From positions 60,722 through 124,721 of the forward strand of contig DGTS01000011.1 in assembly GCA_002394385.1 (NCBI GenBank): DNA of 64,000 nucleotides. Reading direction: 5' to 3'. The stretch comes from Prevotella sp. UBA4330. Lineage in GTDB: Bacteria; Bacteroidota; Bacteroidia; Bacteroidales; Bacteroidaceae. The notes under the pieces are model-generated. The model had not been told where the DNA came from and ran no database searches. It saw only the letters and a list, made by a program, of their open reading frames with translations. This document shows positions 641-64,000 of this stretch, piece after piece. Every line of letters starts with the position of its first letter. The stretch's first letter is position 1. The translations under genes were made by a program, and so were the position numbers.

Positions 641-3142
641 ATGGAAGAGAAAAAAAATTACGAAGTAGCAAATGCTATAGAGGAGGAAGAGCAGTCTTCG
701 TTTAGTTTTGCCTCTATTTATGCCGCTTTCATTCTGAACTGGAAATGGTTCGTGTTGTCTCTGATTATCTGCCTCGGACTGGCAGCAATCTATCTGAGAT
801 ACACCACCCCAATTTACCAGACGAATGCAAAACTTCTTATAAAAGGTTCGGACAAGGGTTACAGTTCTAACGCGAGTCTTAGAAGTTCGCTTACTACCGG
901 TGTCATCAACCAGAACGAAGGTCTTTCAAACGAGATTCAGATACTTCGTTCCAAAAAACTTGCAGAGGAGGCAGTAAAAGACCTGAAACTCTACGTCAAC
1001 TACGTTAAGCACGGACGTGTTAACGACGTGATGATGTATAAGGACAACTACCTTAATGTTGACATCGACCCGGCAAGCCTTAACAACCTTCCAGGCACCG
1101 TTGTTCTTGAAGTGTCAAGAGAGAAAAACGCATTCAAGGTGGAAGGCATAGCAGGCAGAACAACAATCAACCAAACCCTGAAATCGCTGCCCGCCTCAAT
1201 CAAGACGAGCATTGGCACACTTTCATTCACCGCCAACCCCAATGCTTCTCTGAAAGACGGCAACACCATGACCGTTACCATCAGTTCTCCTAAGAACGCA
1301 TGTGCAAAATATGCTGGTTCGTTAGGAACATCGACGATGGAAGGTACGTCTATCGCCATTCTTTCTCTTAAAGATGAAAGCCCAAGCCGTGCTGCCGACT
1401 ATCTCAGACAACTCGTGGTATGCTATAACAGGCAGGCCAACGACGACAAGAACGAGGTAGCAAACAGAACAGAGGAGTTCATCAACAGCCGTCTTGAGAA
1501 AATCAATGCTGAGTTGAACAATACCGAAGGTGAACTGGAAGCATACAAGAAGCGCAACAACATGGTCAATTTGAGCATGAGCGGTTCTACTGCTTTTGGT
1601 AACAGCAACGAGTTTGAGCAGAAACTTGCTTCTGCCAACACACAGGTGCAGTTGCTCAACGAACTCAGTTCTTATGTTCGCGAGCCGGTAAACAAGTATC
1701 AGGTTATTCCTTCTAACATCGGTCTTGCCGACGGTGCTTCGACACAACTCATCAGCAGATATAACCAGGTGGCAATGGAGCGCAACCGACTGTTGAAGAC
1801 AGCCAGCGAATCGAGCCCTGCAGTAACACCGCTTACCGAGGAACTTGACGGACTTTCAACGAGCATCCAGCAGGCACTTAACCAGCAACGCCGCTCTTTG
1901 GAAATACAGCGCAACTCTATTGCATCGCAGTTCAGCCGCTACACCGGTCAAATTCAGCAGACACCCGAGCAGGAGCGCATGCTTACACAGATTGGCCGTC
2001 AGCAAGAGGTGAAGTCTGGTCTTTATCTGATGCTCTTGCAGAAGCGCGAGGAAAACTCTATTTCTCTTGCCGCCACTGCCGACAAGGGAAAACTCATCGA
2101 CGACCCTGCATTTGCCGGCATGATAAGTCCTAAGTCTAACATGATTTTCCTTATCGCCTTGGCCATTGCCATCGGTCTTCCTTCGTTGATACTCTTCCTC
2201 ATCAGCATATTCCGCTATAAGATTGAAGGTCACGACGACGTAGCAAAACTCACCAAACTGCCTATCATTGCCGATGTGGCTGTTGCAAGTGAGACAGCAA
2301 AGACAAAGGCCGACATCGTTGTGCATGAGAACCAGAACAACCAGATGGAGGAGATTTTCCGCTCTATGCGTACCAACCTGCAGTTCATGCTTAAGGAAGA
2401 CGAGAAAGTGGTGATGTTCACATCATCTACTTCTGGTGAGGGCAAGACGTTCAACGCAGCCAACCTCGCTGTAAGTTTCGCACTTCTGGGCAAGAAGGTA
2501 GTGCTGGTCGGTCTTGACATCCGTAAGCCTCGTCTGGCCGAGTTGTTCGAGTTGAAGGACCATCATCATGGTATCACTCCATTGCTGACGCACGACGACC
2601 CAACATGGGAAATGGTGAAGGAGCAGATTCTTGCTTCTGGAGTTAACGACAATCTGGAACTCCTGCTTGCAGGACCTATCCCTCCAAACCCTGCAGAGTT
2701 GCTTACCCGTGACTCTTTGGACAAGGTTATTAACCTGCTGCGTGAGAAATATGACTTCATTATCATCGATACCGCGCCTGTAGGACTGGTAACCGATACC
2801 TTGCAGATTGGACGCGTTTCTGACGCCACGGTATATATGTGCCGTGCCGACTACACGCCGAAGGCAAGTTTCGACCTCATCAACGGTCTTGCAAACGAAG
2901 GCAAACTGCCTAACATGGCTATCGTTATCAATGGTATTGACATGTCCAAGAAGAAGTATGGTTACTACTACGGATATGGCAAGTACGGCAAGTATGGTCG
3001 TTACGGACGCTACGGCAGTTACGGCAAGTACGGACGTTATGGCTCTTACGGCCATTACGGTCACTACGGCAGTTATGGTTACGGTCAGTATGGCAAGAAC
3101 AAATATACCGCTCAGAATGACACCTCTATTAAACTGAAGTAG
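641..3142 (+). CDS. wzc: Polysaccharide co-polymerase / BY-kinase (Wzc-like), 833 aa
   Basis: Two TM segments flank a periplasmic coiled coil. Walker A SSTSGEGKT, A' VGLDIR, B IIIDTAP, and a C-terminal Tyr cluster. Confidence 0.92.
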   Translation: MEEKKNYEVANAIEEEEQSSFSFASIYAAFILNWKWFVLSLIICLGLAAIYLRYTTPIYQTNAKLLIKGSDKGYSSNASLRSSLTTGVINQNEGLSNEIQILRSKKLAEEAVKDLKLYVNYVKHGRVNDVMMYKDNYLNVDIDPASLNNLPGTVVLEVSREKNAFKVEGIAGRTTINQTLKSLPASIKTSIGTLSFTANPNASLKDGNTMTVTISSPKNACAKYAGSLGTSTMEGTSIAILSLKDESPSRAADYLRQLVVCYNRQANDDKNEVANRTEEFINSRLEKINAELNNTEGELEAYKKRNNMVNLSMSGSTAFGNSNEFEQKLASANTQVQLLNELSSYVREPVNKYQVIPSNIGLADGASTQLISRYNQVAMERNRLLKTASESSPAVTPLTEELDGLSTSIQQALNQQRRSLEIQRNSIASQFSRYTGQIQQTPEQERMLTQIGRQQEVKSGLYLMLLQKREENSISLAATADKGKLIDDPAFAGMISPKSNMIFLIALAIAIGLPSLILFLISIFRYKIEGHDDVAKLTKLPIIADVAVASETAKTKADIVVHENQNNQMEEIFRSMRTNLQFMLKEDEKVVMFTSSTSGEGKTFNAANLAVSFALLGKKVVLVGLDIRKPRLAELFELKDHHHGITPLLTHDDPTWEMVKEQILASGVNDNLELLLAGPIPPNPAELLTRDSLDKVINLLREKYDFIIIDTAPVGLVTDTLQIGRVSDATVYMCRADYTPKASFDLINGLANEGKLPNMAIVINGIDMSKKKYGYYYGYGKYGKYGRYGRYGSYGKYGRYGSYGHYGHYGSYGYGQYGKNKYTAQNDTSIKLK

Positions 3143-3239: not shown

Positions 3240-3671
3240 CTATCCTATCTGCCACCAATGCTTTTTCTTCGGTTTGTCATCCTCTGATATGTGTCCAAGG
3301 CGCTCTTTAACGACATCGGTAAGCGACTTGTTGTACTTTATCATCTGATACATTGTTCCCCAGTCGGGCAGTCCGCCGATGTTACGGTCGTCGATGAACA
3401 TCTCCACCTTCAGTTTCCTGCTGAAATGGTTGTTGTTCTGCACACTCTCCTCCGGGTAGTCACGGTTTATGGCATAGAACTCCACTCCCCGTTGCCTGCA
3501 CCACTCCACTGCGTCGTCAAGGAGTTTGCCTTCACGCACACTCCATAATATCAACTTATGCTGTTCCTTTATCAACAACTTCAACGTCTCGGTGGCAAAC
3601 GGGATTTCAGGTCCTATTTCAGGATACCTGTGCTCCACTATAGTGCCGTCAAAATCAACTGCTATTGTCAT
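3240..3671 (-). CDS. Small HAD-type phosphatase (BT0820-like family)
   Basis: N-terminal IAVDFDGTIV (HAD motif I) and FIDDRN (motif IV). Confidence 0.85.
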   Translation of the reverse strand: MTIAVDFDGTIVEHRYPEIGPEIPFATETLKLLIKEQHKLILWSVREGKLLDDAVEWCRQRGVEFYAINRDYPEESVQNNNHFSRKLKVEMFIDDRNIGGLPDWGTMYQMIKYNKSLTDVVKERLGHISEDDKPKKKHWWQIG

Positions 3672-6265: not shown

Positions 6266-6274
6266 CCAAAGGTA

Positions 6275-6390
6275 TATCTTTCAGTTCCCGATTATATGTC
6301 TTTCGCCTCCCGATTGCATACCTTTGAGGGAGCGAAAGGGCATCTTTCGGAATGCGAAATGCCATCTTTCGGAAGCCGAAAGAGCATATC
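6275..6390. repeat. Array of five degenerate 22-nt quasi-palindromic units
   Basis: Units start at 6275, 6297, 6319, 6341 and 6363, e.g. CATCTTTCGGAATGCGAAATGC and CATCTTTCGGAAGCCGAAAGAG. Confidence 0.75.
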
Positions 6391-11802: not shown

Positions 11803-11914
11803 CACACCACTTACGCCCTCTCCTACCCTCAAAAACCACCTCCTGCCACCCCACTAATATCAAGCAGGATTCCAAGACATATCAAATAGAATTCCAAGAC
11901 ATATCAAACCGCGG

Positions 11915-11980
11915 AACAAAGTTAATAACATTGTCGAACAAAGTTAATAACATTGTCTAACAAAGTTATTAACTTTGTTC
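11915..11980. repeat. Three tandem 22-bp palindromic units (AACAAAGTTATTAACTTTGTTC family)
   Basis: Units at 11915, 11937 and 11959, preceded by a 22-nt-period direct repeat (ATTCCAAGACATATCAAA at 11869 and 11891). Confidence 0.9.
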
Positions 11981-12199
11981 CCCTATTTATATCTCCCTGA
12001 AAACCAACAAGATACAAAACGCCCTCCTTGTCAGCATTCCTTTAACACAAGACAGGAACAATGCACGAGGTTTTAGAACAAACAACCAAGTACGAGGAAC
12101 TCAGAATAAGTATAAATAATCACAATTACCACTTTTTCACATTACTAACATTGACTTTGGATTTTTTTTTGTATATTTGTGGGCAAATATTGTTATGGA

Positions 12200-12411
12200 A
12201 TGGAACGTAAACGAATTAACCGCCTGAAGGTGGTACTTGCAGAGAAAGGAATGACCAACAAACAACTGTCGGAAATCCTTGATAAGGACCCTGCTGTATA
12301 TCAAAGTGGGTGACTAATGCCGCCCAGCCTAATGTGGAAATGTTCATCCAGTTATCAAAAGTATTGGGTGTGAGTGTAGATGATTTACTTTGGACAGAAG
12401 AACATGACTAA
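12200..12411 (+). pseudogene. XRE-family HTH transcriptional regulator, frameshifted
   Basis: MERKRINRLKVVLAEKGMTNKQLSEILDKDPAV, then a 1-nt shift near 12299, then SKWVTNAAQPNVEMFIQLSKVLGVSVDDLLWTEEHD*. The span is 212 nt, one base short of a full frame. Confidence 0.8.
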
Positions 12412-12422
12412 TAATAGACTAA

Positions 12423-12482
12423 AAACAGCGCCTGAAAGATGAGAGGAATGAAACCGTGACAAATTGTCACGCTTTCGAACTC
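12423..12482 (+). pseudogene. Internal fragment of a Bro-N (phage antirepressor-like) gene
   Basis: Translates KQRLKDERNETVTNCHAFEL, matching the KQRLKxEGNETVTNCH signature I recall from Bacteroidota Bro-N proteins. It has no start codon and follows a stop. Confidence 0.6.
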
Positions 12483-12540
12483 CGCGTTGCAGATATGTTA
12501 ACAAATTAGGACTTGTGCCAGCAAATATTATATAGGAACT

Positions 12541-13398
12541 ATGGATATACAGAAAATACATCAATACAAGTCGGCCTTCGACTTGATAGCGAAGAGCATC
12601 AAAGACGATGAGGGAAACGCCATCGAAGTATGGTATGCACGTGAGTTGCAACAAGTGTTGGGCTATGCCCGATGGGAGAATTTCGTGGTAGCCATTGGTC
12701 GTGCCATGGAATCGTGTAAGACATTGGGAGTCAATGTGGATGATCATTTTCGTGAGGTCACGAAAATGATAGCTTTGGCCAAAGGAGCTCAGCGCGAAGT
12801 TCAAGACTTTATGCTCACGCGATATGCCTGCTATTTGATAGCGCAGAATGGTGACCCGAAAAAGGAAGAAGTGGCTTTTGCACAAAGTTACTTTGCAGTC
12901 CAAACTCGTAAGGCAGAACTCATTGAAGAACGATTAAACGAAGTGGCGCGTCTGAATACCCGTGAACGCCTACGGGCCTCTGAGAAGCAGCTAAGCCGTA
13001 ATATCTATCAACGCGGAGTGGACGACCGTGGCTTTGGCCGCATCCGTTCAAAAGGTGACTATGCCCTATTTGGTGGTCTGTCAACAGAACAAATGAAGCG
13101 TCGACTTGGCATCAAAAGCGGTGCTTTAGCCGATTATTTGCCCACATTGACGATTGCCGCCAAGAATCTTGCTACGGAAATGACCAATTACAATGTAGAG
13201 CAAAAGGACCTATATGGTGAAGCAAGCATCACAGCCGAGCACGTGCAGAACAACCGAAGCGTTCGTGGTATGCTGGGCCAACGTGGTATCAAGCCCGAAG
13301 ATCTTCCACCTGCAGAAGACATTAAAAAGGTAGAAAGGCGGGTAGCCAAAGATGAGAAGAACATGCAAAAGGACACATCAAGACTTCCAAAGAAATGA
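12541..13398 (+). CDS. dinD: DNA damage-inducible protein D
   Basis: WYARELQQVLGY, DHFREVTKM, LTRYACYLIAQNGDPKKEEVAFAQSYFAVQTRK, RSKGD, LADYLPT. Confidence 0.9.
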   Translation: MDIQKIHQYKSAFDLIAKSIKDDEGNAIEVWYARELQQVLGYARWENFVVAIGRAMESCKTLGVNVDDHFREVTKMIALAKGAQREVQDFMLTRYACYLIAQNGDPKKEEVAFAQSYFAVQTRKAELIEERLNEVARLNTRERLRASEKQLSRNIYQRGVDDRGFGRIRSKGDYALFGGLSTEQMKRRLGIKSGALADYLPTLTIAAKNLATEMTNYNVEQKDLYGEASITAEHVQNNRSVRGMLGQRGIKPEDLPPAEDIKKVERRVAKDEKNMQKDTSRLPKK

Positions 13399-13475
13399 AT
13401 AATAGGTCCACAAGGCTTTTACAGAAAACGAACGAGAGTATTAACAAATTGGGGGGGGGCCTGAGAAAAAAGTAA

Positions 13476-13610
13476 CAAAAAAGACTGCAAGAAATAACAG
13501 AAGGAACAAAGCAATGCATAATTCCATTGTTCCAACGTCCAAACAGCTGGACGCAAAAAGAGTGGAGCATTCAGAAAAAGATTTGAACTGCATCAGCAAC
13601 TAACACATTA
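13476..13610 (+). pseudogene. N-terminal remnant of a DUF262 (GmrSD-like) gene
   Basis: Stop-bounded frame QKRLQEITEGTKQCIIPLFQRPNSWTQKEW, resembling the DUF262 start signature IIEGTKQYxxPLFQRxYSW. Confidence 0.6.
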
Positions 13611-13648
13611 AATATCGTATGTGGTGATAAATTAAATGAAAGATAAAT

Positions 13649-16549
13649 ATGAACGAAAATATAATTGACATCATTCAAGATATAAAGGAGCGAGCCGATA
13701 AAGAATACGAGCAAGCGAAAACTGTTCGTGCTATTGGTCGTGGTAATATCTTTTTGACTGGTCCAAAGATGGATAAGCAAATCTGGATTACAAATACGGA
13801 ACCAGAATATACACAATATGGCCCACGTTTCAGGGATGGGTCATTTGCATCAATCACAGATAGCGTATGCAATGCGCTTGTTGAGCGTGGCCAGCTCGTG
13901 GTTTCAAAAAACAAAACGTATGCCCAACGAGTGCTGAGATATTACGATGGGCACCACGATGTGATGTATAATGGTCGTCGTATCATTTTTGACATTCTCA
14001 ATTCTGCCAACTTTATCAATCCATCTACTGGCAATTCGCGTGACTTGTCAAATATCCAAGTGGGCATGGTTGGCATGAAAAACTTCATGACCTTCCGAGA
14101 TATTGCTACGGCACTAAAACAATTGTCGGAAGTTGGTGCTAAACAGAAAAGTGCTGCTGAAGAGGAAAAAGCCGCGCGAAAACGACTACAGGAATTAGAA
14201 GAACAGCGTCAGCGTGACGAAGAGGAACGCCAACGCCAAATAAAAGCTGCTCAAGATGCAGAAGAGAAACGACGCATCGAAGAAGAACAGCGTCGCATTG
14301 AGGAGGAGCGGCAACGTCAGATTGCTGAGGAACAAGAGCGACAGCGCAAAGCAGAGGAGGAACGCAAACAGTTTGAGGAGGAATTGGTGGCACTCTCCGA
14401 CAAGTATGCCAATGCAGCAAGTTTCATTCGTAAACAGGCTTCACTCCGGCTTAACCCGAATCTTTCAGACGAGCAGCTCGACATCAAGTTCTCGCATGTG
14501 TTGGACGGCACTACCGTAGTTATCAACGGTGGTCCTGGAACTGGTAAGACCACAACACTTATCCAACGTCTGAAGTTACTTATCAGCAGTTCTGACCTTT
14601 TAGACTATCGCGAGAATCATCCTGAATGTACGCTTACAGATGAAGAAATCCGTATCGCTTCTGACCCTGAACACAACTGGATTTTCTTCTCACCAACAGA
14701 ACTACTCCGGCAGTTTATGCGTGATAACATGAACTACGAGGGTTTGACCGATACCAACCGTAAGACCGTGGTGTGGGCTGACTATCTGAGAAGGACGCTT
14801 GTGCGCGACAAATATCAATTCGCTGGCGACGATTTCCCGTTTGACTTTGCGAAATCATCAATGAATGAAAGTCCCATCTACACCAGCAACCATGTTGCGC
14901 TAATCAACCGCTTCATCCGTGAATACATCACAGAGATGAAGAAGAAATTGCAGGTTGTGGCAGAGATTGATACAAGTCGTTTCAGATGGCATCAGGTAGG
15001 GAAACGCATCACAGAGGTTTGTAAGGATGCAAATAAACGTATCAGTGCCACTGCCTCACTCGTTAGGCTGATGCTTGACTTGGATGCCATACATGAGATG
15101 CCAACACCGTCAGGCATTCTTTCTGCAAAGGATGTCGTGGATTCCTATAAGGAACAAATGCAACGCATATCTACATCCTATATGGCAGAATGGCGTAAGG
15201 ATGAGAAGTTTTATGCCGACCTTGTGGAAATGGCGAAGAACTGGAAGAACAACAACCTTACTGAGGAGGAAGAAGAGGAAGTTGGCGAAATGGATGAAGA
15301 CGAAATCCTTGCTGGTGCTGAAAACAAACTGCTCTCAACGCTGAAAACCATGATGAAGCGTCTGGCACTACATACCATAGATACAAAGATTACCCTCACG
15401 GGTAGAGCCAAGCAACTCTATGACAAGGTAGAAAGCCGCATCATTGTTACAGACTATGAGAACCTTGCGGAGTATGCTTACTTCATGCAGTTCTTCTATC
15501 CTATCATTCATAATTACGAAGGCTATCTCTTCAACAAGATAACTACTATCTACAAAAACTTCCGTCGTGAAGCCCTGAAAACAGGAATGGCCGGATGGAA
15601 CAAGAAGTTGTTGAAACAGATTGTTGAGGATGGTAAGAACCGACCATTATGTCAACAGGAACAGGCGCTATTGATAGGATTTATCAACAACCTTATTCTT
15701 AGCATACGTTCTGTGTCTGTCCGTCGCTTCGAGGTTCTGAAACACAAGTTCGCGTTGGCTTATAAAGATGTTTGCCGTCCTGTCATTGGCATTGACGAAG
15801 CTACAGACTATACACTCGTTGACTACTATGCCATCAACTCGCTGCGCCATTATAAGGTGTCATCATTTACCCTGACGGGTGACATGATGCAGGGATTACG
15901 TATTGATGGTATTATGGACTGGATGGACTTGCAACGTCCAAACATGTTCAGCAGCGTGGAGGTGAAGGATCTTACCGTCTCATATCGACAAAGTCCAAAG
16001 CTTATGCGATTGGCTGATGCCATCTATGAGCATGAACAGGGGAAACCGTCACCCTACAAGTGTAAACTTGAACAGGATGAAAGTTGTCCAAATCCCCTCT
16101 TGCTTGAATCAAATGATGAGGAAGAGAAAGCTGAGTGGATAGCAAAACGTGTGCTTGAAGTAAAGCAAAAGTATGGCTTTGTTCCATCTATTGCAGTATT
16201 TGTTGCCGATAAACAAGACGCAGCAGAACTGGAGGTGTTGCTAAAAGACGATGGGCGTTTGGAAAACAACGGCATTGATGTGAAGGATTGTAGCTCTGGT
16301 GATAACTTGTCTGCCCAGGATATGTTACGTATCTTCCCTCTGGACAAGGTGAAAGGAATGGAGTTTGAGGTTGTTTTCTTCCATAATATAGATAGAGTGA
16401 AGGCTTCTAAGCTAATCAGCCGCTACCTTTATGTGGGATTGTCGCGAGCCACGTTCTTTATGGGTGTTACGGCAACCAGTACTGATATTGACATTCTTCC
16501 TGAAATAATAGACGAATTTGATACCACAGGAACATGGGGAGAGGAATAA
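13649..16549 (+). CDS. Superfamily I (UvrD/HelD-like) helicase/ATPase, 966 aa, with an N-terminal domain and a long charged coiled coil
   Basis: Q motif LSDEQ, Walker A GGPGTGKTT (14528-14554), Ia FFSPT, Walker B IGIDEATD, III LTGDMMQ, IV LTVSYRQS, V KVKGMEFEVV, VI LYVGLSRA. An E/R/Q/K-rich helix spans about aa 160-250. Confidence 0.85.
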   Translation: MNENIIDIIQDIKERADKEYEQAKTVRAIGRGNIFLTGPKMDKQIWITNTEPEYTQYGPRFRDGSFASITDSVCNALVERGQLVVSKNKTYAQRVLRYYDGHHDVMYNGRRIIFDILNSANFINPSTGNSRDLSNIQVGMVGMKNFMTFRDIATALKQLSEVGAKQKSAAEEEKAARKRLQELEEQRQRDEEERQRQIKAAQDAEEKRRIEEEQRRIEEERQRQIAEEQERQRKAEEERKQFEEELVALSDKYANAASFIRKQASLRLNPNLSDEQLDIKFSHVLDGTTVVINGGPGTGKTTTLIQRLKLLISSSDLLDYRENHPECTLTDEEIRIASDPEHNWIFFSPTELLRQFMRDNMNYEGLTDTNRKTVVWADYLRRTLVRDKYQFAGDDFPFDFAKSSMNESPIYTSNHVALINRFIREYITEMKKKLQVVAEIDTSRFRWHQVGKRITEVCKDANKRISATASLVRLMLDLDAIHEMPTPSGILSAKDVVDSYKEQMQRISTSYMAEWRKDEKFYADLVEMAKNWKNNNLTEEEEEEVGEMDEDEILAGAENKLLSTLKTMMKRLALHTIDTKITLTGRAKQLYDKVESRIIVTDYENLAEYAYFMQFFYPIIHNYEGYLFNKITTIYKNFRREALKTGMAGWNKKLLKQIVEDGKNRPLCQQEQALLIGFINNLILSIRSVSVRRFEVLKHKFALAYKDVCRPVIGIDEATDYTLVDYYAINSLRHYKVSSFTLTGDMMQGLRIDGIMDWMDLQRPNMFSSVEVKDLTVSYRQSPKLMRLADAIYEHEQGKPSPYKCKLEQDESCPNPLLLESNDEEEKAEWIAKRVLEVKQKYGFVPSIAVFVADKQDAAELEVLLKDDGRLENNGIDVKDCSSGDNLSAQDMLRIFPLDKVKGMEFEVVFFHNIDRVKASKLISRYLYVGLSRATFFMGVTATSTDIDILPEIIDEFDTTGTWGEE

Positions 16550-16552
16550 AGA

Positions 16553-16690
16553 ATGACACCGCAATATCTCGGAAATAAAGCCTTGCTCAATAAGAAGTTG
16601 ACAGCCTTCTTTGTGAGTCGCACCATCCTGACTGCACGGGTGATGAGGTGCTGTAATATATTTTTATACAGTTTAACTCCCATGAGTTAA
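16553..16690 (+). pseudogene. 5' remnant of a small DprA/SLOG-like Bacteroidota gene
   Basis: MTPQYLGNKALLNKKLTAFFVSRTILTARVMRC resembles the YLGNxELLxxxKTAFL-S N-terminus. Similarity stops near 16652. Confidence 0.55.
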
Positions 16691-16741
16691 TGGGTAACTA
16701 TAATACACTTAGTGGTTAACTCTAAAAGAGATTATTTTGCA

Positions 16742-17752
16742 ATGAACAACGAGATACAATTTATATTATACCAGTTGCCTGACGAGGAAGGCAGGGTGCA
16801 GGTGGTGATAAAGGACGAGACAATATGGGCTACGCAGAAAGCGATGGCGCAGTTGTTTGGCGTGGGTGTACCCGCCATCAGCAAACATCTGGCCCACATA
16901 TTTGAAGAGGGAGAATTGGACAGAAATGTGGTTGTTTCCAAAATGGAAACAACCACTCAACATGGTGCTATTGAAGGCAAAACCCAGACGAATGAAACGG
17001 CATTTTATTCGCTTGATGCCATTATCGCCGTAGGCTATCGTGTATCATCCGCCCGTGCAACGAAGTTCCGTATTTGGGCTACGAAAATTCTGAATGAGTA
17101 TATCCGTAAAGGGTTTGTGTTGGATGATGAGCGTCTAAAACAGGGCAAGGCTGTATTTGGAAAAGACTATTTCCGCGAATTGTTGGAGAGAGTCAGAAGC
17201 ATACGTGCCAGCGAACGCCGTATCTGGCAGCAAATAACAGATATTTATGCAGAATGTTCATACGACTACGACCGCAACTCCCCAACAACGCGAGAGTTCT
17301 ATCAGATGATACAGAACCGTTTCCACTATGCCATTACAGGGCAGACGGCTCCCGAAATTATATACACCCGTGCAGACCACAGCAAAGAACACATGGGGCT
17401 ACAGACGTGGAAGAATGCACCAGACGGAAGGGTATTGCTTAGTGACACAAAGGTTGCCAAAAACTATTTGCCAGAGAAGGAAATACGGCAATTGGAAAGA
17501 GCCGTGACAGGCTATTTCGACTATATTGAAGACTTGATAGAACGGGAAAATGCTTTTAATATGGAGCAGTTTGCCGCCTCGGTCAATGAGTTCCTTACTT
17601 TCCGCAGATATGCGCTTTTGCCTGACAAGGGAAAAATAAGCAGAGAAGAAGCAGACCGAAAAGCCGAAGAAGAATATCGGCTGTTTAATCCTACCCAGAG
17701 AATAGACTCAGATTTCGACAAACAAGTCAGAGGTCTGTTTGATGAAACATAA
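16742..17752 (+). CDS. rhuM: Virulence RhuM family protein
   Basis: ETIWATQKAMAQLF, ISKHL, YSLDAIIAVGYRVSSARATKFRIWAT, RIRxSER-type RSIRASERR, WKNAPDGR. The likely start is the ATG at 16742. Confidence 0.9.
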   Translation: MNNEIQFILYQLPDEEGRVQVVIKDETIWATQKAMAQLFGVGVPAISKHLAHIFEEGELDRNVVVSKMETTTQHGAIEGKTQTNETAFYSLDAIIAVGYRVSSARATKFRIWATKILNEYIRKGFVLDDERLKQGKAVFGKDYFRELLERVRSIRASERRIWQQITDIYAECSYDYDRNSPTTREFYQMIQNRFHYAITGQTAPEIIYTRADHSKEHMGLQTWKNAPDGRVLLSDTKVAKNYLPEKEIRQLERAVTGYFDYIEDLIERENAFNMEQFAASVNEFLTFRRYALLPDKGKISREEADRKAEEEYRLFNPTQRIDSDFDKQVRGLFDET

Positions 17753-17857
17753 TCAATATGTTCAACCAAGGTATAAGACGTGTACAGAATGTCGGTCGTG
17801 GTTATAGAGGCCACCGGGAAATTATTGAAAACGATGCAGAGACGTAATTGAGATACA

Positions 17858-17945
17858 ATGACGGTAGAATATCTTGGCAATCAGGAACTGTTGAAACTGT
17901 GAAATGGCTGACAATATATTATTTGTTGGGGTAACAGAGCAAATA
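17858..17945 (+). pseudogene. Internally deleted second DprA/SLOG-like remnant
   Basis: MTVEYLGNQELLKL is fused out of frame to CEMADNILFVGVTEQ, i.e. the N- and C-terminal signatures of the same family, joined at a shared CTG. Confidence 0.55.
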
Positions 17946-18122
17946 ACATTCTACATGAGCGAAGCGACCATTGGTCGGGCACTTGGGGTTGTTCTACATA
18001 TAATCATGTTAAGATTCGAAACTTTTCTGCTAAAAACATTGTAATGTGAAAGAAAAAATGTAACTTTGACATCATAGATGCCGAAGTTACTTGCACTCGG
18101 AATAAAAAACATTCGAGTTTGT

Positions 18123-20654: not shown

Positions 20655-20790
20655 AGTTGATGAGTTGATAAGTTGGTGAGTTAATGAGTTGGTGAGTTAA
20701 TAAGTTGATAAGTTGACGAGTTAATAGTTTACAAGACATGACAGCAAGTAACTTGTTTACTTGTTAACTTGTCAACTAGTCAACTAAAAA
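20655..20790. repeat. Inverted array of 8-nt AGTTGAYR-type repeats
   Basis: The left arm has AGTTGATG/AGTTGGTG/AGTTGACG units and the right arm CTTGTTTA/CTTGTCAA units, ending TCAACTAAAAA. Confidence 0.75.
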
Positions 20791-23447: not shown

Positions 23448-23657
23448 ATAAGGAGAAAAAGGTTGGCCGTATCGTATAGATCGGGATACTCATCAAATAA
23501 TACTGAAAACCGAGACGACTTCTCTTGTTGATGGCGGGCCATATAAAGTTCTCACGGACCTAAGCTGTAAAGCCGGTGGATTACAAAGACGGAGAGTCCT
23601 CAAATCATTTCACCTCGGAGTTTCATCACATCATCGGTACGGCCTTTTTCCCTTTTT
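23448..23657 (+). ncRNA. ssrS: 6S RNA-like / Bacteroidales-1-type RNA
   Basis: It has its own promoter (TTTG 23410-13, 20 nt, TACTTTTG 23434-41). The ~200-nt rod is closed by GGCCGTATCG...CGGTACGGCC and a T-tract. Internal motifs (AAAACCGAGACGAC, GTTGATGGCGGG, GCTGTAAAGCCGGTG, TTTCACCTCGGAG) match my recollection of Bacteroidales-1 RNA. Confidence 0.75.
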
Positions 23658-29098: not shown

Positions 29099-30151
29099 AT
29101 GATTTCAAAAGACAGAAGACTTGCGTCAATACTGCACATAATGTTCTGGGCAGTATTCTTCATGCAGTACATCTTCCTGGTGCCAAAAGGCGAGAGCCTG
29201 CTTGACATCAACGCTATGCTCCATCGTCTTTTGAGACCAATCTCAATGTTCATCATATTCTACATCAACTACCTCTGGTTAGCACCAAACTATTACCTGA
29301 ACAAGAAGTACAGGAGGTTCTTCATCATCAATACCACAATCATCATACTGGTATCATTGGCGATGCAGCACATTATGGAGCACCCCACGGCAAACGTCAC
29401 ACACCCTTCGCCACCTTTGCAGATACATCTTGTCTTTATCGTAAGGCACGCCATGGAGCAAATCATCTTTGCCGCCCTTGCAACAATGATACGGCTATCG
29501 CTGAAGTGGCAGAGCATACACGAAGTGGCACAAGAAATAGAAAAAGAAAAGACAGAGGCACAACTGCTCAGCCTACGCTCGCAGATACGACCCCACTTCT
29601 TGCTCAACACGCTCAACAACATATACGCTCTCATCGCCTTCGACCAGCCTAGGGCTCAACGTGCCGTGATGTCACTCAGCAGCATGCTGCGCCAAATGAT
29701 ATACGGAAACACCGAAAATGCCATCAGCATAAAGAAGGAAGTGGAGTTCATCGAGAACTACGTCAAGTTAATGAAGATAAGACTCCCCGACAACGTCAAG
29801 GTGGACATGGTGGCAGAGATACCAAAAAGGGGCGACAACATAATGATTGCACCGCTCATCATCATATCGCTTGTCGAGAATGCTTTCAAACACGGAGTGA
29901 GCCCCACCGAGCCCAGTTTCATCAGCATAAACATCAATGCAACAGCAGAAAGAATAGTATGTGACATCTGCAACAGCAATTTCCCAAAGAACGACAAAGA
30001 CCGAAGCGGACACGGCATTGGGCTGCAACTCGTGGAAAGCCGACTGCAACTATACTACAAGGGGAAACACACATGGGAGAAGAAAATAGAAAACAACATC
30101 TATAAATCTAAAATTATTATCTATGATACTGAACTGCGCAATAATCGATGA
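29099..30151 (+). CDS. LytS/YehU-type sensor histidine kinase
   Basis: TM region, LRSQIRPHFLLNTLNNIY, LVENAFKHG, GIGL. Confidence 0.92.
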   Translation: MISKDRRLASILHIMFWAVFFMQYIFLVPKGESLLDINAMLHRLLRPISMFIIFYINYLWLAPNYYLNKKYRRFFIINTTIIILVSLAMQHIMEHPTANVTHPSPPLQIHLVFIVRHAMEQIIFAALATMIRLSLKWQSIHEVAQEIEKEKTEAQLLSLRSQIRPHFLLNTLNNIYALIAFDQPRAQRAVMSLSSMLRQMIYGNTENAISIKKEVEFIENYVKLMKIRLPDNVKVDMVAEIPKRGDNIMIAPLIIISLVENAFKHGVSPTEPSFISININATAERIVCDICNSNFPKNDKDRSGHGIGLQLVESRLQLYYKGKHTWEKKIENNIYKSKIIIYDTELRNNR

Positions 30152-30836
30152 CGAGCCCCTGGCTGCCGAACTGCTGGCAAGTTATGCCGACAAGACACCG
30201 TCGCTGAACCTGATTGGTTGCTACAACAGTGCTGTGTCTGCAATAAAGGACATCCGCGAGAAGTCCATTGACATCCTCTTCCTTGACATCCAGATGCCCG
30301 AACTCAGCGGTCTGGAATTTGCTAAACTAATACCCAAGCAAACAAAAATCATCTTCACAACAGCATTCGACCAGTATGCCATAGAGGGATACAAGGTAAA
30401 TGCACTCGACTACCTGCTCAAGCCCATCAGTTACGAGAACTTCCTCATGAGCGTTCAGCGCGCAGAGGCATGGTTCGAAAACTCATATAAACAAGACACT
30501 TTCAAACGAGACAAGTTCATATACGTTAAAAGCGAGTACAAGCACGTGCAAGTCCCGCTCGACGACGTGACCTATATCGAAGGGCTGAAAGACTACGTCA
30601 AGTTCTATTTCGCCGACGACACAAAGCCCGTAATGTCGCTGATGAGCATGAAAAACCTCGAGGAATTCCTGCCAAGACCCGACTTCATGCGCATACACCG
30701 CTCGTTCATCGTGCACATGTCAAAAGCGAAACTCATCGACCGCATGCGCATCGTCTTCGGCGACATCTATCTACCCGTCTCCGACAGTTACAAAGACGAC
30801 GTGGCAAACTACATCAACGAACACACAATAGGTTAA
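30123..30836 (+). CDS. LytTR family response regulator
   Basis: Receiver motifs IDDEP, FLDIQMP, FTTA, YLLKP, followed by a LytTR domain (YIEGLKDYV, FMRIHRSFIV). Confidence 0.95.
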   Translation: MILNCAIIDDEPLAAELLASYADKTPSLNLIGCYNSAVSAIKDIREKSIDILFLDIQMPELSGLEFAKLIPKQTKIIFTTAFDQYAIEGYKVNALDYLLKPISYENFLMSVQRAEAWFENSYKQDTFKRDKFIYVKSEYKHVQVPLDDVTYIEGLKDYVKFYFADDTKPVMSLMSMKNLEEFLPRPDFMRIHRSFIVHMSKAKLIDRMRIVFGDIYLPVSDSYKDDVANYINEHTIG

Positions 30837-30870: not shown

Positions 30871-30933
30871 TACTTTTACCTCCTCAGAATGCCACTGCAT
30901 ATCTTTCGGCATGCAACTAATATCAAACGGGCT

Positions 30934-30977
30934 AACAATGTTATTAACTTTGTCGAACAAAGTTATTAACTTTGTTA
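30934..30977. repeat. Two tandem 22-bp palindromic units (same family as 11915)
   Basis: AACAATGTTATTAACTTTGTCG and AACAAAGTTATTAACTTTGTTA. Confidence 0.9.
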
Positions 30978-31094
30978 GCCCACTTGCATCTGTCTGATAT
31001 CCAATAAGATACAAAACGGCACCTGTGCCATATTTGACAACATGGCAAGAAAACCTATCTGAAAGATAAAAAGGATTGAGGTTCTACTGCAAAA

Positions 31095-33509: not shown

Positions 33510-33710
33510 TTTTAGTTGATGAGTAAACGAGAGACAAGTTGACAAGTAAACAAGTTGACAAGTTGACAAGTAAACAAGTTGACGAGAAAACGAATTGACG
33601 AGTAAACAAGCGAATTGCACAAGGTCTTGAAATCAAGCAACCTGTCAACTCGTCCGCTCGACCCTTGGTCGCTTTGCTCGCAAAGAACTTGTTTACTCGT
33701 CAACTACAAT
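33510..33710. repeat. Inverted array of 8-nt AGTTGACA/AGTAAACA repeats
   Basis: Many tandem units at 33510-33610, with complementary units at 33640-33705. Confidence 0.8.
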
Positions 33711-36084: not shown

Positions 36085-36153
36085 TTAGTTGACAAGTAAA
36101 CGAGTTGACGAGTTGACAAGTTGACGAGTTGACAAGTTGACGAGTTGACAAGT
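36085..36153. repeat. Tandem 8-nt AGTTGACR repeats directly after the pepD stop
   Basis: AGTTGACA AGTAAACG AGTTGACG AGTTGACA AGTTGACG AGTTGACA AGTTGACG AGTTGACA. Confidence 0.85.
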
Positions 36154-39250: not shown

Positions 39251-39361
39251 TATTATCATTCGGCACCAATATAATACCCCGTATCATGCTGTATTATGCA
39301 ACAATTCGCCTGTTACTTATCGTCAAAGTGGCCGCTATATGCTTTCAGTTTGTTTTTTTTG

Positions 39362-39469
39362 CTAAGCATTGCATATCAAGTGCCGCCTCATCAACGGTTC
39401 TCTATCGGCAATAGCACCTATGCTTTGCCATAGTTCAGTGTTCATCGTATTTAATTGTACTGCTGTCAT
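39362..39469 (-). pseudogene. Truncated small gene resembling Prevotella toxin-antitoxin antitoxin-like proteins
   Basis: Minus-strand promoter element TATATTTG (39506-39499), then MTAVQLNTMNTELWQSIGAIADREPLMRRHLICNA*. The N-terminus resembles a small Prevotella family I recall; the frame appears to break after about aa 29. Confidence 0.45.
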
Positions 39470-39646
39470 AATTCCAAACTTATTTACTTATTCTGTTGCA
39501 AATATACATAGAATAAATGAAATCACGAAAAAAGGAAGGTAAAAAAGATGATGTCATCCACACGAAAAACGCTCTGAGCCGACGAAAAATGCCCTTTGGC
39601 AACCCCACTGAGTATCAATGGGTTACAAAAAGCACACAAACGGGGC

Positions 39647-39734
39647 AACAAAGTTATTAACTTTGTTCAACAATCCTATTAACTTTGTTCGACTATGTTA
39701 ATAACTTTGTTCGACAATCTTATTAACTTTGTTT
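39647..39734. repeat. Four tandem 22-bp palindromic units (same family), element in reverse orientation
   Basis: Units at 39647, 39669, 39691 and 39713, followed by 22-nt-period TATCTTTCGG-type units from 39744. Confidence 0.9.
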
Positions 39735-39844
39735 CGCCGTTTGATATCTTTCGGAAAGCGAAAGGATATATATGGGCAGGCAGAAAGACAAAAACGGGCA
39801 TGCCGAAGCATATCTCTGGGCACACGAATGATGTGCTCCCGTAA

Positions 39845-43405: not shown

Positions 43406-43420
43406 AACTATGGGTTTAAA

Positions 43421-43535
43421 GGAGTTAAGGAGCCATGGAGTTAAGGAGTTAAGACATTAGTTTGGTATTCCTAATTTATAAGGAATTAAATCAATAACAA
43501 TTGTCTTAACTCCTTAACTTCATAAATCCTTAACA
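43421..43535. repeat. GGAGTTAA-unit inverted repeat element (long hairpin)
   Basis: GGAGTTAAGACA (43445) pairs with TGTCTTAACTCC (43502), with outer GGAGTTAA/TTAACTCC-like units. Confidence 0.7.
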
Positions 43536-54459: not shown

Positions 54460-55137
54460 ATGACTGATTTTTATACTGGACATTCCAAAGCATTTGTATC
54501 TGTTGACGTTATAATCTTCGGATTTGACAACAACAAACTGAAAATACTTCTCGGACATCGCAAGATGGACCCGGGACGTGGAGAATGGGCTCTTTACGGC
54601 GGTTTCGTAAATATCAACGAGAGCGTTGACGAGGCAGCAAGCAGAGTGCTGTACGACCTGACAGGACTGAAAGACCTGTATATGAAACAAGTGCACACCT
54701 TCGGCGCTGTTGACCGCGACCCCGGCGAGCGCGTCATCTCCGTTGCCTATTGCGCCCTGATCAACGTTAACGACTACGACAAAGGCTTGCTCGAAGAGCA
54801 TGAGGTGCAGTGGGTGGAACTGGAGAAACTGCCTCGGCTGTACAGCGACCACAACAAGATGGTGAACAAGGCCATCACCTTGCTGCGCCGCAGGATAAAC
54901 ACCGAGCCGCTCAGTTTCAATCTTCTTCCCGAGTTGTTCACCCTGACACAGTTGCAGCACGTCTATGAAGCCATTCTCGGCGAGGAGATAGACAAGCGCA
55001 ACTTCAGAAAGAAGATTAAGACAATAGACTTCATAGAGAAGACTGACCTCATTGATAAGGAGACTTCAAAGCGAGGCGCGGCACTCTACCGTTTCAACAA
55101 AGAGATGTATCTGGAAGAACCAGTGTTTAAACTTTAA
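54460..55137 (+). CDS. araR: NrtR-family (Nudix + wHTH) regulator, AraR
   Basis: SVDVIIF, degenerate Nudix box, [34 protein letters not shown]. It is embedded in the ara operon. Confidence 0.88.
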
Positions 55138-55148
55138 ATCAAAACGCT

Positions 55149-55850
55149 ATGTTAGAAGAACTTAAAGAAAAAGTATTCCGTGCGAACCTTGACCTGGTAA
55201 AGCACAATCTGGTGATTTTCACATGGGGCAATGTGTCGGCAATCGACCGTGAGAAAGGCCTCGTGGTAATCAAACCGTCAGGAGTAAGTTACGACACGAT
55301 GAAGGCTGAGGACATGGTAGTGGTTGACCTGCAGACCGGAAAGGTGGTCGAGGGCGACCTTAACCCGTCGTCAGACACTCCCACACACCTTATATTATAT
55401 AGGGAGTTCCCAGAGATTGGCGGCGTGGTGCACACCCACTCCACCTATGCCACAGCATGGGCACAGGCAGGCAAGGACATTCCGAACATCGGAACAACAC
55501 ATGCCGACTATTTCCACGACGAGATTCCATGCACCGACGACATGACAGAGGCAGAGGTGAAGGGCGACTACGAACTGGAGACAGGCAACGTTATCGTAAA
55601 GCGCATCCGCAAGGGCAACATCAATCCCGTTCACACACCTGGTGTGCTGGTGAAGAACCACGGTCCGTTCTCATGGGGAAAAGATGCCGACAATGCCGTT
55701 TATAATGCCGTAGTGATGGAACAGGTGGCAAAGATGGCATTCGTGTCGTTCTCTGTAAATCCTGACACCACGATGAACCCGCTGCTCATCGAGAAGCACT
55801 TCTCGCGCAAGCACGGTCCTAACGCGTATTACGGACAGAAGAAGAAGTAA
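55149..55850 (+). CDS. araD: L-ribulose-5-phosphate 4-epimerase
   Basis: [41 protein letters not shown]. Confidence 0.97.
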
Positions 55851-63748: not shown

Positions 63749-63848
63749 CGTTACCTGCCTTATATAAAAACACGCATCAGAATATAAGAAAATAATCTTT
63801 ATCATCCACACAATATCAAGTGAGATTTTAAGTTAGTATTAATGGCGA

Positions 63849-63936
63849 GACAATGTTATTAACTTTGTTCGGCAATGTTATTAACTTTGTTCAACAATCT
63901 TAATAACTTTGTTCAACAATGTTATTAACTTTGTTA
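63849..63936. repeat. Four tandem 22-bp palindromic units (same family)
   Basis: Units at 63849, 63871, 63893 and 63915. Confidence 0.9.
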
Positions 63937-64000
63937 GCCCATTTATAACGAATTGATAATCAACTAATTAAAAAAGGAGAACCATGAGTTTATTTGTAAG

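Follow-up and report, generated by a model that had tools for sequence, protein, structure and literature searches.

What are the short palindromes that recur in tandem at four places in the 64-kb stretch of Prevotella DNA analysed here (the window), and why are they kept? Prevotella is dominant in the rumen and in many human guts, and little is known of its non-coding DNA. Thirteen 22-bp units form four tandem arrays of 3, 2, 4 and 4 units in the window, as an earlier note on this DNA had described, and this count was borne out by a search with AACAAAGTTANTAACTTTGTT allowing ≤2 mismatches, in which all nine matches fell within the four noted arrays (0 expected, 100 shuffles), and by Tandem Repeats Finder, which placed period-22 arrays at 11914-11978 (x3), 30934-30975 (x2), 39646-39733 (x4) and 63850-63935 (x4). 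The units had been called perfect palindromes, which is true of only 3/13 (at 11959, 30956 and 39647); the remaining 10/13 depart from the palindrome at 1-4 positions, and these positions are conserved slot-specific variants, not noise. The units abut without spacers and no Cas domain was seen among the scanned window ORFs, in agreement with the view that this is not CRISPR, and a Pfam scan of the 47 major window ORFs detected no transposase or integrase domain, as had been stated for transposases. The common flanks were likewise recovered: the left flank ends ...ATATCAAACsGsG, often with another 22-nt array before it, and the right flank carries (G)CCC followed by a TTTGTATC..TTG..CAA..GtTACAAA inverted repeat. 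These signatures also confirmed that the copy at 39647 lies in the opposite orientation.

In scans of genomes and metagenomes, 49 distinct loci, all of them in rumen Prevotella, gave 83 copies that could be oriented, and these all follow one canonical element. The exact palindrome was found in only 2 of 185,579 species-representative genomes, both rumen Prevotella MAGs (with 12 and 4 loci), and in 77 metagenome stretches, most of them contigs of rumen type; the single palindromes that the genome scan gave in contigs of Electrothrix and Olleya are chance matches. Loci were collected by requiring one perfect palindrome, with copy D of the window and locus L097 found by other routes. In four DNA runs, words from the palindromic (P) arrays were 16-30x deeper than single-copy flanks, and on long Ga0256404 contigs the arrays occur about once per 70 kb; they break short-read assemblies, and many contigs end in them. 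No copy lies within an ORF (0/83), and the flanking genes, as given by a crude longest-ORF caller and read in the orientation of the element, are arranged ++ in 20 cases, -- in 16, convergently in 15 and divergently in 8, so that the element has no preferred orientation relative to genes. The 88 nearest neighbour genes are functionally diverse, and no transposase or integrase recurs among them. Those seen repeatedly, at 2-3 loci each, are two-component regulators, ABC-F ATPases and aldo-keto reductases, and none resembles a mobilising enzyme. BLAST of the canonical element against 72,556 plasmids gave no match. Only two matches to phage contigs were obtained, both single palindromes within a coding region, and these were treated as chance matches; L025, L033 and L077 carry the same flanking sequence as these two palindromes. 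At gathering scores, Rfam returned only the Bacteroidales-1 RNA (23465-23650) for the whole window, and at E up to 0.1 it gave no match at the elements of three element-bearing loci. The four window loci belong to one family of short, non-coding, modular intergenic repeats, present so far in a few rumen Prevotella species and apparently undescribed; as the earlier note had supposed, no described family was matched in Rfam, plasmids, phage contigs or the literature.

The canonical architecture, U(n)-P(2-4)-U'-U, is found at 49 loci, all intergenic, where copies were oriented by sequence signatures in their flanks, flank folding energy being too noisy for this. The left part consists of one or more loosely conserved 22-nt U bricks that end ...GATTGATATCAAACCGCGG, and is followed by abutting 22-bp P units, which in canonical form are u1 GACAATGTTATTAACTTTGTTG, u2 AACAAAGTTATTAAGATTGTCG, u3 AACAAAGTTAATAAGATTGTTG and u4 AACAAAGTTATTAACTTTGTTA; the right part is an inverted pair of U-like bricks of 43 nt (CCCCAyTTGTATCTTATTGGAAACCAAGTAGTTACAAACGGCG). 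The consensus of the P unit is AACAAAGTTAwTAACTTTGTT, and the slot-specific consensus is at least 90% at nearly all positions of u2-u4. A P unit is made of two inverted 10-bp half-sites, which take a strong form, AACAAAGTTA, or a conserved variant form, ACAAT(C/G)TTA (ACAATCTTA). U on the left and U' on the right are imperfect inverted copies around the P array with fuzzy outer ends, and conservation reaches ~25-70 nt to the left of P and 43-58 nt to its right, for a conserved element length of ~160-200 bp; extra U bricks occur on either side, and conservation fades gradually outward. Every reading frame is closed by the TAA stops that return from unit to unit with a period not divisible by 3. 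Flanking modules without a P array were not found in ~700 kb of sequence. Prevotella intergenic regions can in this sense be said to carry modular 22-nt 'brick' repeats.

At locus A of the window, the left module (11857..11914, plus strand), delimited from the tandem-repeat row, the oriented flanks and the left-flank conservation profile, contains 2.4 tandem 22-nt U bricks (ATATCAAACAGAATTCCAAGAC) and ends ...ATATCAAACCGCGG; it is followed by an unstranded P array of 3 palindromic 22-bp units (11915..11980), one internal unit fewer than the 4 of L080, L050 and L063, and by the 43-nt imperfect inverted repeat U'-U (CCCTATTTATATCTCCCTGAAAACCAACAAGATACAAAACGCC) of the right module (11981..12023, plus strand). 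Locus B lies downstream of the terminator of a LytTR response-regulator gene, with a U-like left module ending ...AATATCAAACGGGCT (30884..30933, plus strand), a P array of 2 units (30934..30977, unstranded), of which there are 4 in the conspecific L051 and L061, and a right inverted-repeat module (30978..31020, plus strand). The element at locus C is on the minus strand and shows a degenerate right inverted-repeat module (39603..39645), a P array of 4 units (39646..39733, unstranded) and a left U module that reads, in reverse complement, ...CGAAAGATATCAAACGGCGA (39734..39783); the array has 4 units in L047 and 2 in L069, and 2 in L097, its orthologue in another species (~85% nt identity). At locus D, the left U module (AATATCAAGTGAG ATTTTAAGTTAGTATTAATGGCGA; 63799..63848, plus strand) precedes a P array of 4 'inverted-centre' units (63849..63936, unstranded), whose right halves are all TAACTTTGTT and none of which (0/4) is a perfect palindrome, and a degenerate right module (63937..63979, plus strand) that reaches the next gene's ribosome-binding region and its ATG at 63985.

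Several known repeats resemble this element in part. BOX of Streptococcus pneumoniae, boxA-(boxB)n-boxC, is modular and intergenic, with different end modules around a tandem internal module, and shares with the Prevotella element the lack of coding capacity, a strong secondary-structure potential and context-dependent effects. It differs in phylum, sequences and module sizes (59/45/50 nt), and boxB is not a palindrome; we know of no claim that boxB is more conserved than boxA or boxC. REP/BIME sequences are likewise clustered short extragenic palindromes tolerated at gene 3' ends, and are bound by the host proteins IHF and gyrase. A GTAG or CGTC tag marks one end of most REPs (PMC3733652) and is lacking from the P unit. 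REPs in BIMEs also alternate in orientation with linkers between them, as opposed to P units, which abut in identical phase without linkers, and no RAYT-like (Y1 transposase) gene was found among the 88 nearest genes of the 49 loci. BrickBuilt of Porphyromonas gingivalis (Klein et al. 2015, PMC4596501) comes from the same phylum and is likewise always intergenic; it has a limited host range, numbers tens of copies in a genome, mostly keeps its loci from strain to strain, and consists of spacer-less tandem bricks of ~22-23 nt enclosed by a 'leader' and a 'tail' that differ from each other and have small inverted ends. Its bricks are 23 nt long and not known to be palindromic, as opposed to the palindromic 22-nt Prevotella units; it has 1 to 22.8 copies per element, compared with a mode of four and slot-specific variants in Prevotella; and its leader and tail, up to 285/318 nt, have IS5-like terminal repeats (GAGACCTTTGCA) matching ISPg elements, whereas the flanks of the Prevotella element are 25-70-nt bricks for which no matching IS was seen. 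Inspected by eye, the Prevotella flanks contain none of the terminal repeats printed for BrickBuilt, and no resemblance in sequence was noticed to its printed repeats and ends, among which the 23-nt brick is given as a logo only. Distinct end modules around a tandem internal module in intergenic DNA, the layout of BOX and BrickBuilt, occur at 49 loci.

Comparison of copies indicates that purifying selection acts on the DNA sequence of the P core and that the U modules drift like neutral intergenic DNA. Between non-orthologous copies, P is 92.8% identical, compared with 63-65% for the adjoining modules and a background of 26%. Across species, in six orthologous pairs with 34 free positions, identity is 96.2% (327/340) at core positions and 79% (27/34) at free positions (Fisher p = 0.0009), where the two free positions per unit are the centre and the linker and 20/22 positions are constrained. 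The requirement of a perfect palindrome biases the sample to well-preserved arrays, which is partly controlled by L097, by copy D and by leaving out the search-selected perfect units, upon which mismatches number 7/200 in the core vs 5/20 at free positions (p = 0.002). Identity in these orthologous pairs is 44-68% for the left U and 65-91% for the right module. That agreement at free positions is higher in orthologues (79%) than in paralogues (60%) argues against homogenisation by gene conversion. The palindromic brick, which is conserved more than the neighbouring genes, would make a ready bait for a DNA-binding protein.

As for the age of the family, copies A and C and five further loci keep their site and orientation between species with flanks only 81-92% identical, and one further species has the element at locus C. 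The earlier note had proposed looking for presence and absence at orthologous loci; every within-species comparison carries the element and no empty site was found there, and the only between-species absence is that of L084 vs L017, where L017 has the absent allele in a diverged intergenic region. More distant ABC-F loci, from species without htpG synteny and without arrays, are uninformative on empty sites. No solo ends or related autonomous element were seen; nor was a target duplication noted, although with fuzzy ends and no clean empty site a short direct repeat would be uninformative. An autonomous element with the same ends was not found in the window, ~700 kb of loci, the 88 neighbour genes or the plasmid collection. 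The note's mobile element stands as a dispersed composite with shared flanks, but its current mobility is not supported: seven loci are fixed across species, which the note itself had named as grounds for refutation, so that the reading of an element mobile now is largely refuted. Because 49 loci have the same four-slot order, we infer that the whole module probably dispersed in one piece in the past; today its inheritance is vertical, at intergenic sites that stay fixed. The element could still be a selfish, non-autonomous, MITE-like sequence without host function, its uniform P core reflecting recent amplification or the needs of a transposase. It is small, non-coding and multi-copy (~160-200 bp, 49 loci), with many dispersed copies of modular architecture and inverted U/U' flanks that are strictly intergenic and without orientation bias; at one locus the element is present in one species and absent from another; and the closest published analogue, BrickBuilt, is interpreted as a minisatellite-carrying MITE (PMC4596501). 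Such an element is nevertheless unlikely, given the seven orthologous sites fixed across species with flanks 81-92% identical, the lack of insertion polymorphism among close relatives, of solo ends in ~700 kb and of a transposase in the window or among the 88 neighbour genes, and the fact that old orthologues keep the P core at 96% as the supposed terminal repeats drift to 44-91%, the opposite of what is expected of an inactive selfish element.

Four units are the mode (37/53 dereplicated copies) and probably the ancestral number. Where the window arrays have 2 or 3 units, the near-identical strains L080, L050, L063, L051 and L061 have 4, and strains with 97-99% identical flanks differ by whole units, 4 vs 3 or 2, at loci A, B and C; copy number is variable between strains (2, 3 or 4), as had been claimed, but not freely so, with its mode at 4. 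The two central units are exactly inverted in L045 vs L049 and also in L003 vs L090. The array loses or inverts whole units by within-array recombination, and the number of units and the orientation of the central ones are possible strain markers. Copy A borders a strain-variable islet, in accordance with the placing of one copy at the edge of an accessory islet, and in this position it flanks a hotspot that exchanges candidate phage-defence genes. Inter-strain homology stops just past the right module at two loci, the locus A islet and L045/L049, and both islet junction types are present together in one sample. These two observations, together with inverted core-type half-sites around short spacers, whole-unit differences between near-identical strains and exact inversions of the central unit pair, would suit an array that is a cluster of site-specific recombination sites, a recombinase target and hotspot, which would explain unit-precise deletions, inversions and neighbouring islets alike. 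We regard this as very unlikely, as there is no recombinase gene nearby, the islet starts at 12044, ~20 nt past the right module (~64 nt past the P array) and so outside the array, the L080 islet is bounded on either side by a direct repeat of its own, CGGAATAwAAAA, and in L088 the element occurs with no islet; moreover, slippage and inverted-repeat recombination explain whole-unit changes in any palindromic tandem array.

The RNA data, which consist of assembled contigs, uninformative on strand and 5' ends and broken within repeats, point to passive, context-dependent transcription across the elements. An action as RNA or single strand, in which the palindromes and the U'-U hairpin serve as a terminator, a stabiliser of mRNA 3' ends or a small RNA, would be in keeping with the folding of the canonical 152-nt element into three long hairpins (-34.2 kcal/mol, z = -8.05), with RNA contigs of the convergent DUF3298 gene at locus B that end within the right module (30998-31027), with a somewhat enriched placement between convergent genes (15/59) and with RNA contigs of run X1 that traverse copies A and D. 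It is highly improbable, however, since the right hairpin has no covariation (paired cells 70.1% vs 69.8% shuffled, 189/500) and its variable stem positions are mostly unpaired, asymmetric half-sites in u2 and u3 are conserved even though they break the unit hairpins, and Rfam yields no match even with E raised to 0.1. Around copy C, the unique flanks also have zero coverage in four metatranscriptomes in which both neighbour genes are expressed, and the rpiB and htpG transcripts stop well short of the elements. A portable promoter module, from which the array fires transcription outward, is suggested by the strong half-site, which reads TAACTTTG and which we take to be the Bacteroidota -7 box TAnnTTTG (the Bacteroides -7 consensus) on one strand or the other, and by the only near-P-unit matches outside arrays, which resemble ordinary promoters (...TAACTTTGTA, TACCTTTGCA). 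Upstream of copy D there is no coverage in runs X2 and X6, and contigs of the downstream gene begin inside the array, although contig ends within a repeat are expected from assembly alone. BrickBuilt is reported to have bidirectional promoter activity in E. coli reporters. There is little probability in this reading either: manual inspection of the canonical sequence showed no TTTG (-33) at the usual distance before any -7-like box, the box-richer strand faces gene 5' vs 3' ends in 15 vs 16 cases (left) and 3 vs 3 (right), 25% of copies lie between two gene 3' ends, and at copy C the boxes (4/4) face the ABC-F gene, with 200 nt between them without RNA and an mRNA start at ~39933.

We see about an even chance that a sequence-specific DNA-binding protein docks on the P array, which is itself set within a once-dispersed, BOX/BrickBuilt-like modular repeat. 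Of the two alternatives in the earlier note, the protein-binding array fits best, because purifying selection maintains the palindromic core at the sequence level. Each P unit would offer a binding protein two inverted 10-bp half-sites, strong and variant, and the 22-bp period, two helical turns, would set four dimers on one face of the helix, which would favour cooperative oligomeric binding; in this the array can be likened to tandem operators, iterons and centromere-like arrays, and the candidate roles of binding are architectural or nucleoid-related, as a recombination site, in insulation or in regulation. Against docking stand the 20/22 constrained positions, more than a typical transcription-factor site needs, and the quarter of copies between convergent genes, where a classical operator would have nothing to regulate. 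A tentative extension, possible but doubtful, is that P arrays are domesticated repeat cores, tens of chromosomal docking sites with four phased dimers each, selected across Prevotella species. Candidate binders would be a factor that organises the nucleoid or segregation, a global regulator of the LytTR type, or a recombinase responsible for flipping and trimming the arrays. If this were true, a gut lineage that is abundant but little studied would have a new cis/trans system spanning the chromosome, in which the combination of strong and variant half-sites found at each slot has a functional meaning.

A more specific form of the protein-binding model, in which the arrays are targets of a LytTR-type response regulator, is suggested by the fit of array period and motif. 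AAAGTTAAT, part of the strong half-site, is repeated directly at 22-bp intervals through u2-u4, and we take it to fit the LytTR consensus. Operons with a LytS-type kinase and a LytTR regulator end 86-101 bp from an array at two unrelated loci (regulators at 30123-30836 of the window and 4394-5113 of L009, 37% identical to each other), and a third locus has a LytS-type kinase 2.8 kb away. In ComE it has been described that LytTR regulators bind 9-bp direct repeats ~12 bp apart, for a period of ~21 bp (PMC4005675). We hold this form to be quite improbable, since only 2/88 nearest neighbours are LytTR proteins, a weak enrichment, the arrays lie downstream of those operons as opposed to at promoters, most copies adjoin unrelated housekeeping genes, and palindromic symmetry with 20/22 constrained positions exceeds what a LytTR site needs.

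For docking by a sequence-specific protein in general, there is a precedent in Bacteroidota, where AraR dimers bind tandem 21-bp semi-palindromic operators (PMC4666351). The AraR sites, 22-bp plasmid iterons and sopC/parS-type arrays likewise have ~21-22-bp sites in helical phase, (semi-)palindromic, with a free centre and linker and strong conservation. Such operator, iteron and centromere-like arrays are found in one or a few functional places (promoter, origin, partition site) beside the gene of the binding protein, as opposed to the Prevotella family, with its tens of chromosomal copies in every intergenic context and the same passenger flanks. The window itself holds a probable example of AraR tandem sites at 55895-55964.

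Up to two mismatches allowed, the motif AACAAAGTTA-N-TAACTTTGTT matches the window nine times, and all nine matches lie within four tandem arrays of 22-bp palindromic units (P units); the expectation from 100 dinucleotide-preserving shuffles is zero. As delimited by Tandem Repeats Finder at period 22, these arrays are copy A (11914-11978, three units), copy B (30934-30975, two units), copy C (39646-39733, minus strand, four units) and copy D (63850-63935, four units). Their sequences are as the earlier note had described them, although its statement that the units are perfect palindromes holds for three of them, the remainder being imperfect. The arrays are spacer-less and hence not CRISPR, as that note maintained, and it was also right that the window lacks a transposase, in that no transposase or integrase domain was detected among the 47 major ORFs scanned. 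The window is a stretch of ordinary Bacteroidota chromosome, carrying capsule genes, glnS, thrA, thrC, htpG, an ABC-F ATPase gene, grpE-dnaJ, gal and ara genes with tkt and rpiB, and a MacAB-TolC-type efflux operon that precedes a LytS/LytTR two-component pair.

When the perfect palindrome was searched against 185,579 species-representative genomes, arrays were found in two, both of uncultured rumen Prevotella: RUG064 (12 loci) and RGIG7809 (4 loci). Two more hits were single palindromes and were set aside as chance matches. A metagenome scan added 77 further stretches, mostly from rumen-like metagenome assemblies and including long Ga0256404 contigs, one of which (619 kb) belongs to the species of the window (96-99% identity) and has orthologues of copies A, B and C. 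The family loci were gathered by requiring one perfect palindrome. Orienting the arrays by flank signature reveals a single canonical element, in which a left module of at least one loosely conserved 22-nt brick (U brick), with the terminus ...GATTGATATCAAACCGCGG, is followed by four P-unit slots, namely u1 (G/A)ACAATGTTATTAACTTTGTTG, u2 AACAAAGTTATTAAGATTGTCG, u3 AACAAAGTTAATAAGATTGTTG and u4 AACAAAGTTATTAACTTTGTTA, and then by a right module, CCCCAyTTGTATCTTATTGGAAACCAAGTAGTTACAAACGGCG, made up of two U-like bricks in inverted arrangement. The conserved flanks span about 25-70 nt on the left and 43-58 nt on the right, and the roughly 700 kb of DNA retrieved contained no flank module without a P array. 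Four is the modal unit number (37/53 dereplicated copies), and copies A and B, with three and two units, have four-unit orthologues in near-identical strains, which indicates that they are deletion derivatives. Since 49 distinct loci repeat one four-slot order, down to the right halves of u2 and u3, which are non-palindromic and conserved, the module must have been copied whole rather than expanded separately at each site. The family is present in tens of copies per genome; array density is about one per 70 kb on long contigs, and in four DNA runs the depth of P-array words exceeds that of the single-copy flanks 16-30-fold. Metagenome contigs L034, L038, L090 and L093 end inside or directly at a P array, so that the elements break short-read assemblies and copy counts from MAGs are underestimates.

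Across 33 non-orthologous canonical copies, mean identity is 92.8% for the P array, 63.5% for the left U bricks, 65% for the right module and 26% for unrelated flanks, and only the centre (W) and the linker base of each P unit are free. Selection was assessed in six cross-species orthologous pairs, where the core is 96.2% identical (327/340) versus 79% at the free positions (27/34; Fisher p = 0.0009), and when units matching the search pattern were left out to guard against ascertainment bias, mismatches numbered 7/200 in the core versus 5/20 at free positions (p = 0.002). In the same pairs the left U bricks are 44-68% and the right modules 65-91% identical, close to the surrounding intergenic DNA. 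Free positions agree more often between orthologues (79%) than between paralogues (60%), so the similarity of the cores is not maintained by gene-conversion homogenisation. These sequence comparisons indicate that purifying selection acts on the P core as DNA sequence, variant half-sites included, and not on the flanking bricks.

None of 83 oriented copies lies inside an ORF. With gene contexts called by a crude ORF caller, the genes on either side, read in element orientation, form ++ pairs at 20 loci, -- pairs at 16, convergent pairs at 15 and divergent pairs at 8, so that element orientation is unbiased, with a mild excess of convergent sites. Functions are diverse among the 88 genes nearest to the 49 loci, and no recurring transposase, integrase or other candidate mobilising family was found among them. 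At seven loci the element keeps both its position and its orientation across species, with flanking DNA just 81-92% identical; these include copy A (RUG064 L015, L088 and L089) and copy C (L097, retrieved independently via the neighbouring ABC-F protein). Presence/absence between species was seen at one locus only (L084 with the element, L017 without), in an intergenic region too diverged for insertion boundaries to be visible. The family is therefore old and mostly vertically inherited, and the earlier suggestion of a mobile element finds no support as regards current mobility.

The arrays themselves vary in copy number, as had been proposed, with close strains differing in whole units at A, B and C (four versus three or two). 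The two central units are exactly inverted between L045 and L049, whose left flanks are ~99% identical, and likewise between L003 and L090; window copy D is of the inverted-centre type. The number of U bricks varies as well (L016 versus L046). At two loci, locus A and L045/L049, strain-to-strain homology stops just past the right module. Copy A does adjoin an accessory islet, a strain-variable segment (12044-18090) between the element and the thrA leader that carries the PADLOC candidate defence genes PDC-S13/Bro-N (12541-13398) and PDC-S05/RhuM (16712-17752) and, between them, a candidate defence gene for a helicase-like protein of 966 aa (13649-16549). In L080, from the same species, the islet is swapped for a DUF4143 ATPase, two DUF488 proteins and a DuOB protein, while in L088 it is absent, and both junction types occur together in one DNA sample (sequencing run X5). 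Because the islet boundary lies ~20 nt beyond the right module and the L080 islet is bounded at both ends by a short direct repeat of its own, the element marks a hotspot but is not demonstrably its cause.

As a single strand, the canonical element is predicted to fold strongly (-34.2 kcal/mol, z = -8). The right hairpin lacks covariation (paired cells 70.1% versus 69.8% in shuffles, 189/500 shuffles being as high), its variable stem positions are mostly unpaired, and the conserved blocks of the right module (TTTGTA, TTG, CAA and TACAAA) are spaced by about one helical turn; u2 and u3 are asymmetric in a conserved way, which makes the unit hairpins weaker. In assembled metatranscriptome contigs, an error-free RNA contig runs across copy A, and the RNA contigs of a convergent gene stop inside the right module of copy B. 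Copy D is spanned by RNA in one run, and in two other runs the upstream side is uncovered and the contigs of the downstream gene start within the array. Unique sequence on either side of copy C is without RNA in four runs, with htpG and the ABC-F gene expressed, the ABC-F message starting at ~39933, 200 nt past the array. These patterns suggest passive, context-dependent transcription of the element, and no abundant discrete RNA, consistent promoter or consistent terminator was found across copies A-D in the assembled RNA contigs. The strong half-site reads TAACTTTG, the Bacteroidota -7 box, and a promoter reading would be in keeping with stray near-matches to the P unit, which are ordinary promoter-like sites; however, the strand with more intact boxes shows no preference for gene 5' ends. 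Between htpG and element C, RNA contigs from three metatranscriptomes cover an unannotated intergenic stretch (39259-39537) that has uncovered DNA on either side, and the htpG-element C region differs in length from that of strain L047 (240 bp versus 92 bp).

The best-supported account is that of a modular, BOX/BrickBuilt-like intergenic repeat that would have spread as a unit in an ancestor of the carrier species and is now essentially immobile, its array recombining internally, with the P core as a putative sequence-specific protein-binding platform. In each unit the 10-bp half-sites are inverted relative to one another and the centre and linker are free to vary, every slot combines strong with variant half-sites in a conserved way, and the P core is more conserved than the flanking genes. 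As units abut at two helical turns, up to four dimers could be placed on one helix face. A Bacteroidota precedent is provided by the AraR operators, which are tandem, 21-bp and semi-palindromic (PMC4666351), and the three tandem 22-bp semi-palindromic units (GCAATATAGCCTATTTTGGTCT) at 55895-55964, between araD (55149-55850) and araA (56099-57631) and just downstream of an NrtR-family araR gene (54460-55137), are probably operators of the kind described there for Bacteroides. One candidate binder of the P array is a LytTR regulator, for which known sites consist of 9-bp repeats ~21 bp apart (PMC4005675). LytS/LytTR operons adjoin the element at two unrelated loci, the two regulators being 37% identical, but this amounts to just 2/88 neighbours and the arrays lie downstream of the operons. 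With a quarter of the copies sitting between convergent genes, a classical regulon is unlikely. The putative platform may have an architectural role or one related to recombination.

Among published families, the nearest in kind is BrickBuilt of Porphyromonas gingivalis (PMC4596501), which has in common with the P-array element its phylum, intergenic sites, tens of copies, and a spacer-less array of ~23-nt bricks enclosed by a leader and a tail. The two differ in period (23 versus 22 nt) and in unit number (1 to 22.8 versus a mode of four with slot identity), and the BrickBuilt leader and tail, unlike the flanks described here, are long, with IS5-like ends. No similarity was noticed to the BrickBuilt sequences printed in that paper, where the 23-nt unit is shown as a logo only. 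The GTAG/CGTC tag of REP/BIME is absent from the P unit, and no RAYT gene was found among the 88 nearest genes at 49 loci. The element has no Rfam match and literature searches returned no published description, in agreement with the view that it was undescribed; the P-array family is a modular interspersed repeat, notable for its strongly selected palindromic core.

Other repeats share the window and related genomes. Two 22-nt-period arrays without P units lie upstream of glnS (6273-6315 and 6332-6382), and their unit (GGAATGCGAAAGGGCATCTTTC) resembles the U bricks beside P arrays, which indicates that U-type minisatellites also stand alone. Another 22-nt minisatellite (GGGTGATAGGTGTTGGGTGAGG, ~5 copies) lies to the right of the element in L084 (about 3520-3640), and the orthologous intergenic region of L017 (about 900-1050) has no P array and a different short tandem repeat (…CCCATTATGTCATTATGTCTA…), so that intergenic minisatellites of ~22-nt period seem general in genomes of the carrier group. 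A second intergenic family has tandem 8-bp units (AGTTGACA/AGTTGATG, or AAGGAGTT) at 20655-20722 with 20749-20785, 33514-33610, 36087-36153, and 43419-43453 with 43505-43534; its arrays directly follow gene ends, in at least two cases with an inverted array of the complementary unit ~30-50 nt on, and would fold into very long hairpins. A 9/18/27/36-bp periodic repeat (TACGGCAAG...) at 2978-3093, within the 3' end of a Wzz/AAA-domain gene (641-3142), codes for a tail rich in tyrosine and glycine, of the kind expected of a capsule tyrosine kinase. Finally, the Rfam family Bacteroidales-1 is matched at 23465-23650 (145 bits versus a gathering score of 60), and it is suggested that this RNA is the 6S RNA of Bacteroidales.
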